From the NCBI RefSeq assembly GCF_048403405.1, contig NZ_CP183129.1: 64,000 nt of DNA; one strand, written 5' to 3'. A model generated the notes under the pieces. It was not told where the DNA came from. It saw nothing but the letters and a program-made list of their open reading frames with translations, and made no database searches. The stretch is from Escherichia coli (lineage in GTDB: Bacteria; Pseudomonadota; Gammaproteobacteria; Enterobacterales; Enterobacteriaceae). How positions within the stretch are numbered: position 1 is the first letter of the stretch; every line of letters begins with the position of its first letter. Shown here one piece after another: positions 12,048 through 15,435 of the stretch. A program made the translations under genes and the position numbers.

Positions 12048-12377
12048 TTACGCCAGATTAGCGTCGAGGAACTCTTTCAACTGACCTTTAGACAGTGCGC
12101 CCACTTTGGTTGCCGCCACTTCACCGTTTTTGAACAGTAGCAGAGTCGGGATACCGCGGATGCCATATTTCGGCGCAGTGCCAGGGTTTTGATCGATGTT
12201 CAGTTTTGCAACGGTCAGTTTGCCCTGATATTCGTCAGCGATTTCATCCAGAATCGGGGCGATCATTTTGCACGGACCGCACCACTCTGCCCAGAAATCG
12301 ACGAGGATCGCCCCGTCCGCTTTGAGTACATCCGTGTCAAAACTGTCGTCAGTCAGGTGAATAATTTTATCGCTCAT
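12048..12377 (-). CDS. trxA: thioredoxin 1
   Basis: 109 aa from ATG at 12375-12377 ([47 protein letters not shown]...); WCGPC active site. Confidence 0.97.
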
Positions 12378-12507
12378 ATTTAACTCCACAGGAATAAGCC
12401 TGGCGTGTTGGTTTCGTTGTTGGTGTAACATTAACCAACTAAAGGTTGACTTTATTTCACCGGATACGCTTTCGTAAAGCAATAGTAAGCTGATATTCTA
12501 CCACACT

Positions 12508-13773
12508 ATGAGCAAAACACATTTAACAGAACAGAAGTTTTCCGACTTCGCCCTGCATCCGAAGGTTGTAGAAGCCCTTGAAAAAAAAGGGTTTCATAAC
12601 TGTACGCCCATTCAGGCACTGGCCCTTCCGCTGACGCTGGCGGGTCGTGACGTAGCCGGGCAGGCGCAAACCGGTACCGGAAAAACGATGGCGTTTCTTA
12701 CGTCAACGTTTCATTATCTTCTCTCTCATCCCGCGATTGCCGATCGCAAGGTGAATCAACCGCGTGCCTTAATTATGGCACCGACGCGTGAACTTGCCGT
12801 GCAGATCCATGCCGACGCAGAACCGCTGGCGGAAGCTACTGGCCTGAAGCTGGGTCTGGCTTACGGTGGTGATGGCTACGACAAACAGCTGAAAGTGCTG
12901 GAAAGCGGCGTTGACATTCTGATTGGCACCACGGGTCGTTTAATTGACTACGCCAAGCAGAACCACATTAACCTCGGTGCCATTCAGGTAGTGGTACTGG
13001 ACGAAGCCGATCGTATGTACGATCTGGGCTTTATTAAAGATATCCGCTGGCTGTTCCGCCGTATGCCGCCTGCAAACCAGCGCCTCAACATGCTGTTCTC
13101 CGCCACGCTTTCGTACCGGGTACGTGAACTGGCGTTCGAGCAGATGAACAATGCCGAATATATTGAAGTGGAACCGGAACAGAAAACGGGCCACCGTATT
13201 AAAGAAGAGCTTTTCTACCCTTCTAACGAAGAAAAAATGCGTTTGCTGCAAACGCTGATCGAAGAAGAGTGGCCAGACAGAGCGATTATTTTCGCCAACA
13301 CCAAACACCGTTGTGAAGAGATCTGGGGCCACCTGGCGGCAGATGGTCATCGTGTCGGTTTGTTGACAGGCGATGTCGCGCAGAAAAAACGTCTGCGTAT
13401 TCTTGATGAATTTACCCGTGGGGATCTGGATATTCTGGTTGCCACCGACGTTGCCGCGCGTGGCCTGCATATCCCGGCTGTGACGCACGTCTTTAACTAC
13501 GATTTACCCGATGACTGTGAAGATTACGTTCACCGTATTGGTCGTACAGGTCGTGCAGGCGCAAGTGGTCATTCCATCAGCCTGGCATGTGAAGAGTATG
13601 CATTGAATTTGCCTGCTATTGAGACCTATATTGGTCACTCAATTCCGGTAAGCAAATACAATCCGGACGCATTGATGACCGATCTGCCTAAACCGCTGCG
13701 CCTCACGCGCCCGCGCACAGGCAATGGTCCGCGTCGTACTGGCGCTCCGCGTAATCGTCGTCGTTCAGGTTAA
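12508..13773 (+). CDS. rhlB: ATP-dependent RNA helicase RhlB
   Basis: 421-aa ORF; DEAD-box motifs ([22 protein letters not shown]); ATG at 12508. Confidence 0.96.
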
Positions 13774-13908
13774 ATAAAAAATGTCATACTCAAAATCATT
13801 CAAACTGTATCAAGATGGCCAGAGAATGAACCCCGATGAGCTTACTGTAGTAAGTGATTCAGGTGAAAGAATGCAGCCAACACAGAGACAGATTGAAGGA
13901 TGAAGAGT

Positions 13909-15393
13909 ATGGGTTCCACCTCGTCGCTGTATGCAGCCATTGATCTCGGTTCGAATAGTTTTCATATGCTGGTTGTGCGCGAGGTGGCTGGAAGCATCCA
14001 GACGCTGACGCGAATTAAACGCAAAGTGCGTCTGGCTGCTGGCCTGAATAGCGAAAATGCCCTCTCTAATGAAGCAATGGAGCGCGGTTGGCAATGTCTG
14101 CGCCTGTTTGCTGAACGTCTGCAAGATATCCCTCCCTCGCAAATTCGCGTTGTCGCTACGGCGACATTACGACTTGCCGTCAATGCGGGTGATTTTATTG
14201 CCAAAGCACAGGAAATCCTCGGTTGTCCGGTACAGGTGATCAGCGGTGAAGAGGAAGCACGTCTGATTTATCAGGGCGTTGCTCACACAACTGGCGGTGC
14301 CGATCAGCGCCTGGTGGTGGATATAGGCGGTGCCAGTACTGAACTGGTAACCGGCACGGGTGCACAAACCACCTCGTTGTTCAGCCTGTCGATGGGCTGT
14401 GTCACCTGGCTGGAACGCTATTTTGCCGATCGTAATCTGGGGCAGGAAAATTTTGATGCTGCAGAAAAAGCGGCACGCGAAGTGTTACGTCCGGTTGCCG
14501 ATGAATTACGGTATCACGGCTGGAAAGTGTGCGTTGGCGCTTCCGGCACCGTGCAGGCGTTACAGGAAATCATGATGGCACAGGGGATGGATGAACGCAT
14601 TACCCTGGAAAAGTTGCAGCAACTGAAACAGCGAGCCATTCATTGCGGTCGGCTGGAGGAACTGGAGATTGACGGGCTGACGCTGGAACGTGCGTTAGTG
14701 TTCCCGAGTGGTCTGGCAATCCTGATAGCCATTTTTACCGAACTGAATATTCAGTGTATGACCCTGGCGGGTGGTGCGCTGCGTGAAGGCCTGGTCTACG
14801 GCATGTTGCATCTGACCGTCGAGCAGGATATTCGCAGCCGTACGCTGCGTAATATTCAGCGCCGCTTTATGATCGATATTGATCAGGCACAGCGCGTAGC
14901 CAAAGTTGCGGCTAACTTCTTCGATCAGGTGAAAAACGAATGGCATCTTGAAGCAATAAGCCGCGATTTGCTCATCAGCGCCTGCCAGCTTCATGAAATC
15001 GGCCTGAGCGTTGACTTCAAACAAGCGCCGCAACACGCTGCTTATCTGGTACGTAATCTGGATCTTCCCGGTTTTACCCCCGCACAGAAAAAACTGCTGG
15101 CGACGCTACTGCTCAACCAGACGAATCCGGTCGATCTCTCATCGCTGCATCAGCAAAATGCCGTACCGCCGCGCGTCGCAGAACAACTCTGCCGCTTACT
15201 TCGCCTGGCCATCATTTTTGCCAGCCGTCGCCGTGACGATCTCGTGCCAGAGATGACATTACAGGCTAACCATGAACTGTTGACCTTGACGCTTCCGCAA
15301 GGTTGGCTAACCCAACATCCGCTCGGTAAAGAGATTATTGCTCAGGAAAGCCAGTGGCAGAGCTATGTCCACTGGCCGCTGGAAGTGCATTAA
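13909..15393 (+). CDS. gppA: guanosine pentaphosphate phosphohydrolase GppA
   Basis: 494 aa from ATG 13909 ([23 protein letters not shown]...); Ppx/GppA fold; an in-frame ATG at 13900 is an alternative start. Confidence 0.94.
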
Positions 15394-15402
15394 TGAGTAA
15401 GT

Positions 15403-15435
15403 GCCGGATGCGATGCTGACGCATCTTTTCCGGCC
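15403..15435. repeat. REP (repetitive extragenic palindrome) element
   Basis: gccggatgcgatgctgacgcatcttttccggc, typical GCCGGATG...CCGGC REP architecture, between convergent gppA and rep. Confidence 0.7.

Follow-up and report, generated by a model that had tools for sequence, protein, structure and literature searches.

The palindrome between rhlB and gppA of Escherichia coli is the tip of an ERIC element whose right end appears to have become the gppA start

[quoted passage not shown] In the 64-kb stretch of DNA analysed here (the window), both genes lie on the + strand, and a gap of 135 bp separates the end of rhlB at 13773 from the gppA ATG at 13909. No feature is annotated in the rhlB-gppA gap of the K-12 RefSeq record. 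The original prediction had pointed to a short perfect palindrome in the gap, cttact-gt-agtaag, ending 55 nt upstream of the gppA ATG. After rechecking of the coordinates, the palindrome, the 135-bp gap and the 55-nt distance all proved to be as claimed. The features that will be referred to are the following:

12508..13773, + strand: rhlB, the upstream cistron (421 aa)
13781..13903, + strand: 40-codon upstream ORF, starting at the putative ancestral gppA ATG, 7 nt after the rhlB stop, and ending in the TGA at 13901-13903
13785..13911, + strand: ERIC (also IRU or RU-1) miniature inverted-repeat element, 127 bp, CATAC...GTATG, with the Wilson & Sharp consensus orientation on the + strand
13785..13806, + strand: left terminal inverted repeat, forming the left basal arm (helices 1-2) of the consensus fold
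13841..13854, + strand: the reported palindrome, CTTACTGTAGTAAG, with perfect 6-bp arms and a 2-nt spacer
13890..13911, + strand: right terminal inverted repeat, forming the right basal arm, which holds the gppA Shine-Dalgarno sequence, an internal in-frame ATG, the stop of the upstream ORF and the gppA start
13896..13900, + strand: AAGGA, the gppA Shine-Dalgarno sequence, 8 nt before the ATG and inside the ERIC right arm
13900..13902, + strand: ERIC-internal ATG in frame with gppA, which would add MKS; it overlaps the stop of the upstream ORF as ATGA and has poor Shine-Dalgarno spacing
13909..13911, + strand: annotated gppA start codon, the last three bases of the element
13909..15393, + strand: gppA, the downstream cistron (494 aa)

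A consensus scan of positions 13774-13908 returned neither a sigma-70-like promoter nor an intrinsic terminator. The hairpin described below, which is followed by GGGUUCCACC, was itself considered as such a terminator and rejected, as there is no G+C-rich stem with a U run in this interval. Two other matches were recorded in the neighbourhood. The TrxA 5' UTR thermometer (RF02773) lies at 12348-12447 on the - strand (81.7 bits versus a gathering score of 58), upstream of trxA, as expected for E. coli. A sub-threshold match to naRNA4/CssrE at 15374-15435 on the + strand (26.2 bits versus a gathering score of 59.5) extends over the gppA stop into the convergent gppA-rep spacer and is possibly a REP-type palindromic unit.

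Taken by itself, the 6-bp palindrome is a chance-level feature. Perfect inverted repeats with 6-bp arms and spacers of 0-8 nt occur 255 times in the window, or about 1 per 250 bp, and 0.3-0.5 of them are expected per 135 bp. Dinucleotide shuffles of the window contain 156 +/- 16 such repeats; this surplus of approximately 1.6-fold is window-wide and is not particular to the rhlB-gppA site. The motif count that had been proposed along with the palindrome, made here over the 64-kb window, gave the motif no distinction of its own: beside the chance frequency of the inverted repeat, the exact 14-mer is unique, and its half-sites occur 8 and 12 times, which is the chance expectation. Within the species the site is nearly constant. 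The 261 bases around it are present at 90% identity or more in 5424 of 5426 complete E. coli genomes, and the identical palindrome is found in K-12.

It is the 127-nt hairpin, not the bare palindrome, that exceeds chance, and the support from the alignment is strong. Minimum-free-energy folding of the whole gap produces a single long imperfect hairpin with the palindrome at its tip, at -28.7 kcal/mol (z = -2.7) on the + strand and -32.9 kcal/mol (z = -3.0) on the - strand. The consensus fold of 16 full-length orthologous copies, 15 of them 127 bp long and one 128 bp, comprises 35 pairs with 95.7% of the cells paired, versus 31-44% in a control with slid partners. Compensatory changes are seen at five pairs, and the covariation score was reached in none of 500 shuffles. 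The folding strand is more likely to be the + strand (mRNA sense), because G.U cells outnumber A.C cells by 36 to 6 (our own count from the pair types).

The palindrome corresponds to helix 6 of the consensus fold, in which 13840-13845 pairs with 13850-13855 around a UGUA loop. The predicted RNA tip consists of five Watson-Crick pairs, one G.U pair and a loop of 4 nt instead of the 2-nt spacer, because a loop of 2 nt is impossible in RNA. The arms of the helix change by compensation, from CTTAC/GTAAG to CTGAC/GTCAG: at columns 63 and 72, U-A is found in 11 species, G-C in two and single-sided intermediates in three. The letters of the loop differ freely among the orthologues (TGTA, TTTA, AAAA and CTGG). 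In E. albertii, C. gillenii and Citrobacter sp. 18056 the apex has been lost together with the palindrome by internal deletions of 21 or 45 nt, with both arms kept. The tip is therefore the least essential part of the element. Two of the earlier suggestions thus held in part. Conservation in relatives applies to the structure of the hairpin, which is kept in the relatives carrying the element, and not to the exact 14-mer. Likewise, the idea of a small RNA hairpin was correct in kind but far too small in extent, given that the palindrome forms just the apical helix of a hairpin 127 nt long, which takes up nearly all of the rhlB-gppA gap.

This palindrome is the apical stem-loop of a 127-bp ERIC (IRU/RU-1), a non-autonomous mobile element of Enterobacteriaceae. 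The core at the palindrome, GAGCTTAC-TGTA-GTAAGTGA, is the junction of two primer sequences that are found together in the literature and that we take to be the standard ERIC-PCR primers; 31 of the 44 positions of the core defined by both primer sequences are identical. As the reference we used the 127-nt E. coli ERIC/RU-1 consensus of Wilson & Sharp, printed in Table 1a of PMC2759123 and aligned as its reverse complement. Positions 13785-13911 match it without a gap over 127 nt in both, with 92 of 127 bases identical (72%); shuffled controls averaged 34 identities and reached 50 at most. A profile built from the gppA-site copies (nhmmer) detected full-length copies elsewhere in the loci examined, some on the + strand (such as L062 3709-3834) and some on the - strand (such as L009 1010-890), including sites downstream of gppA. 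The identity was thus borne out in two ways: the similarity to the consensus reaches beyond the core, and further copies exist. We consider this identity of the palindrome as an ERIC tip, together with the insertion into the gppA start proposed below, to be very probably the best explanation of the locus.

The literature on the ERIC, IRU or RU-1 family reportedly includes Sharples & Lloyd 1990, Hulton, Higgins & Sharp 1991 and Wilson & Sharp 2006. The family itself is already known, and nothing here alters the knowledge of it. In reviews, ERIC is described as a MITE of approximately 127 bp that has inverted repeats at its ends, carries TA at each terminus and is transcribed into a hairpin; it is present in about 30 copies in K-12 and also found in Vibrionaceae (PMC2229807, PMC3184786, PMC10969869). 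By blastn, 1-5 places are detectable in each E. coli genome (median 3), and there is no second ERIC copy within the 64-kb window. In several Citrobacter species a second ERIC, in the opposite orientation, is located in the trxA-rhlB spacer (L009 890-1010, L010 1027-1148, L011 and L020 891-1010, L014 and L017 1022-1141, all on the - strand); the E. coli window has none there.

The gppA-site copy resembles the rest of the family in its length, its colinearity with the consensus, its GAGCTTAC-N-GTAAGTGA core, its terminal inverted repeats and its long imperfect hairpin, and also in its position in a transcribed spacer beside a stop codon, the existence of dispersed copies and the polymorphism of presence and absence. 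It differs from the family in two respects. First, its outermost bases are C...G, not T...A, and no intact TA duplication is visible. Second, it breaks the 5' end of a coding sequence instead of lying purely in a spacer, and its terminal triplet is now the gppA start.

Only one Rfam family matched the element at permissive thresholds, RF02818 (V_AS5, "Vibrio RNA AS5"), at 25.5 bits (E = 0.002-0.03) and over the full length of the model (positions 1-129). This is below the gathering threshold of 96 bits; the gppA-site element is homologous to V_AS5, not a member of it as curated. The consensus sequences of V_AS5 and ERIC are identical at 88 of 117 positions (score 118, versus 43.5 +/- 5.6 for shuffles), and other ERIC copies match V_AS5 at 32-37 bits. 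From these comparisons, V_AS5 appears to describe the ERIC repeat as it occurs in Vibrio. Unlike the gppA-site copy, this is a diverged Vibrio form, and it is filed as an antisense RNA gene.

We compared the gppA locus from 80 species of Enterobacteriaceae, 77 of which gave loci with both flanks. The site is filled by the element in 23 of the 77 species and empty in 54. RhlB ends in ...RRRSG* in all 77 loci, with a close variant in a few. At the empty sites, the gppA ATG is found 4-11 nt past the rhlB stop (for example, TAA-GAAAAT-ATG CTC AGC TCC ACC...). At the filled sites (23 species and the window), there are approximately 127 extra bases, which start after ATGC, that is, after the old start codon and one base, and end with GTATG. 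The empty sites have ATG CT(A/C) and continue with the downstream codons of their filled sister species. Close sister species differ in state, among them S. diarizonae, which carries the element, and S. arizonae, which lacks it. The two agree at 93-99% of positions right to the junction on either side, and no donor-like recombination segment was seen between them at 100-nt resolution; alignments in this comparison that rhlB indels had thrown out of register were set aside. The empty sites have an ancestral look, and no simple deletion of the present filled form would yield them. On the neighbour-joining tree of gppA, the filled and empty states imply at least 12 changes, and this patchy pattern fits no simple path of gain or loss. 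All the filled copies have the derived C...G termini in common, a feature which argues for a single origin.

The ends of the element provide some clues regarding its history. All 24 gppA-site copies begin with CATAC and end with GTATG; copies elsewhere end with GTATA, GTAAA or GCATA. GAAGGATGA is common to most ERIC copies, beyond the gppA site. Set out around the expected TA termini, the gppA-site ends read CA-TAC...GTA-TG and the empty sites read ATGC-TA-A.. (for example, in S. arizonae and C. sedlakii). The simplest history that we infer is insertion at TA, followed by a T-to-C and an A-to-G change. The ERIC would have entered the ancestral gppA within codon 2 (ATG CTA ...), at its TA, and so have parted the old start codon from the gene. 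A new Shine-Dalgarno sequence (AAGGA) would have come with the right end of the ERIC, and the A-to-G change of the terminal base there would have made the new ATG; the matching T-to-C change at the other end would have kept the terminal pair. The two later substitutions are needed in this model because the flanks are CA...TG, not the canonical TA...TA. On the whole, the take-over of the gppA start by the element appears to be well supported by the comparison of filled and empty sites.

The old start codon is still in place at the filled sites, where it opens the 40-codon upstream ORF. In K-12 this ORF corresponds to complement(3964235..3964357). Its ATG is invariant among the filled sites, and its stop is located 5 nt before the gppA ATG in 19 of the 24 and within 12 nt in 22 of the 24. 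Independent changes of -21, -45, -45, -9 and +30 nt leave the frame intact; altogether, the change is a multiple of three in 6 of 8 indel variants (binomial p ~0.02, our own calculation). In silico, the probability of being unpaired in the free mRNA is 0.92 for the AUG of the upstream ORF, 0.26 for the gppA Shine-Dalgarno sequence and 0.00 for the gppA AUG. Holding the left arm open raises the last two values to 0.74 (Shine-Dalgarno sequence) and 0.47 (gppA AUG). The layout of a coupled ORF is thus seen in silico, with a stop near the start and with a Shine-Dalgarno sequence and an AUG masked by the coding sequence of the upstream ORF.

These observations are consistent with the following mechanism. 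In the rhlB-gppA mRNA, the hairpin would bury the Shine-Dalgarno sequence and the AUG of gppA. Ribosomes could start at the old, accessible AUG (13781), the site where the ancestral gppA start would have been coupled to rhlB termination. As these ribosomes read the 40-codon ORF, a relay, through the left arm, they would melt the hairpin, and termination 5 nt before the gppA AUG would permit initiation or re-initiation there. The ancestral translational coupling of rhlB to gppA would thus be preserved despite the insertion. That the hairpin is opened in this way, by a translated relay ORF that passes ribosomes to gppA, is, on this modelling, quite possible, if short of probable. The fuller version, in which the ERIC would have been domesticated as a complete translational relay for gppA and the only role of the relay ORF would be to open the hairpin for the handover from rhlB to gppA, is proposed more tentatively. 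In the literature that we searched, there is no description of an ERIC-built translational relay for gppA.

There are partial parallels in known systems. In structure-masked coupled cistrons with leader ORFs, as at gppA, the upstream start is accessible, the Shine-Dalgarno sequence and AUG are held in a stem with the upstream ORF, and the stop may be 5 nt before the AUG. At gppA, in contrast, a transposable repeat supplies all four of stem, Shine-Dalgarno sequence, stop and AUG, and the arrangement is a prediction. In Neisseria REP2 and the inverted-repeat units of Borrelia, a small repeat likewise gives a downstream gene its translation start signals; however, these repeats are unrelated in sequence and bring a promoter, whereas the gppA-site ERIC has no promoter consensus (PMC3184786).

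Several observations bear on how much of this arrangement is under selection. Long stop-free frames are found in ERIC copies generally (PMC2759123), and in our set they are common on both strands, with 31-42 codons in unrelated copies. Because ERIC copies are commonly open, an open frame alone is weak evidence; the position of the stop and the in-frame indels were weighed instead. The majority ERIC consensus, read in the frame of the upstream ORF, gives YPK*FELQQGGK*VNPQELT*VSDWGERTQPTQLQLEI*, with three stops in that frame. In 2 of the 8 indel variants, those of K. oxytoca and K. pneumoniae, the relay is frameshifted. In Raoultella terrigena and Enterobacter sp. 10-1, an extra insert of 72 nt splits the gppA-site ERIC (L055 ~2385-2456 and L050 ~1703-1774, respectively) and gives the relay an early stop 142 nt upstream. 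With the relay shifted or shortened in these four species, gppA is evidently expressible without the full relay. As to the codons themselves, synonymous and nonsynonymous changes number 442 and 718 in the frame of the ORF, versus 299 and 837 or 314 and 946 in the control frames, and the third codon positions are barely more variable. This points to a weak codon-level constraint. The peptide is probably not a functional product. Neither rhlB nor gppA has an entry in the one supplement of the small-ORF ribosome-profiling study of Stringer et al. that was consulted.

A different reading is that the element is a selfish relic with no regulatory role: gppA merely had to gain a start codon, and the hairpin and the frame would persist through slow decay of an ERIC that is poor in stops. 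The open frames of 31-42 codons in unrelated copies fit this reading, as do the 54 of 77 species that live without the element and the species in which the relay ORF is disrupted or 21-45 nt of the element have been deleted. However, the compensatory changes and the asymmetry of G.U over A.C indicate selection on the fold of the sense-strand RNA, and 6 of the 8 indels are multiples of three. Moreover, the element diverges less than the flanking genes. Between S. diarizonae and Citrobacter sp. wls619, it is approximately 5.5% diverged by our own count, compared with approximately 12-23% for gppA. We therefore regard a relic with no role as rather unlikely.

Alternatively, the hairpin could act mainly as an element of mRNA stability or processing. 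Ribosomes would keep it from folding and thereby uncover an RNase E site within the 3' repeat, destabilising the rhlB segment relative to gppA; in another form of this proposal, the long duplex would be a substrate of RNase III. The proposal as a whole is compatible with the coupling model. Reviews, as far as they relay the primary work, report such behaviour for ERICs co-transcribed just past stop codons (PMC2229807, PMC3184786, PMC10969869). In particular, De Gregorio et al. 2005 are quoted there for an RNase E-dependent destabilisation of the upstream cistron by Yersinia ERICs (via PMC2229807, PMC10969869). The gppA-site element starts 11 nt past the rhlB stop, an ORF enters it, and the hairpin is conserved at the RNA level. 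By these review accounts, the Yersinia elements are similarly co-transcribed just downstream of a stop codon, and entry of ribosomes is expected to hinder their folding (PMC2229807, PMC10969869); it is the upstream cistron that is destabilised in that case, whereas at gppA we propose an unmasking of the downstream ribosome-binding site. The Yersinia effect goes with the orientation of the element (class A or B), and its extension to the gppA-site copy is conjectural. Our literature searches returned no RNA cleavage data for the rhlB-gppA locus. In Dickeya, rhlB and gppA form one transcription unit with similar RNA levels, which would speak against the proposal if the Dickeya site carries an ERIC. 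A main role in stability or processing seems unlikely to us.

Some nr records name the 40-codon ORF "addiction module toxin RelE", which raises the question of a real small-protein gene. Gene calls for the ORF exist in several Escherichia genomes, and there is the mild synonymous excess in its frame. However, it matches no Pfam family at E <= 10, and its 40 aa fall far short of the length of RelE; on these grounds the RelE toxin was rejected. Within Escherichia most of the differences are nonsynonymous, the ERIC repeat determines what the ORF encodes, and in-frame deletions take out 7-15 codons. A real small-protein gene is thus highly improbable, and the RelE name (proteins P0001-P0007) is almost certainly a propagated misannotation.

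Finally, the suggestion of a protein-binding site, in the form of a DNA operator for a dimeric gppA regulator, draws on the perfect 6-bp inverted repeat upstream of the gene, but it is close to refuted and has a negligible probability, given the chance-level frequency of the repeat, the lack of a promoter-like site nearby, the compensated variation of arms and free variation of loop letters (which mark a structure, not a sequence-specific protein site), the deletion of the palindrome from an otherwise retained element in three species, and its nature as the core of a repeat with tens to hundreds of copies per enterobacterial genome.

The gap between rhlB and gppA in E. coli is therefore an ERIC copy and not an anonymous spacer, although it is unlabelled in the K-12 RefSeq record, and some pipelines misname the ORF within it as a RelE toxin. 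The locus offers a concrete case of a miniature transposon in the 5' end of a housekeeping gene, which would have been tolerated by giving the gene a new ribosome-binding site and start codon. If the ERIC indeed acts as a translational relay, the level of a pppGpp hydrolase would be tied to the translation of a degradosome helicase. This leads to a testable hypothesis: the synthesis of GppA, and hence the balance of pppGpp and ppGpp, may be linked to the translation of rhlB.
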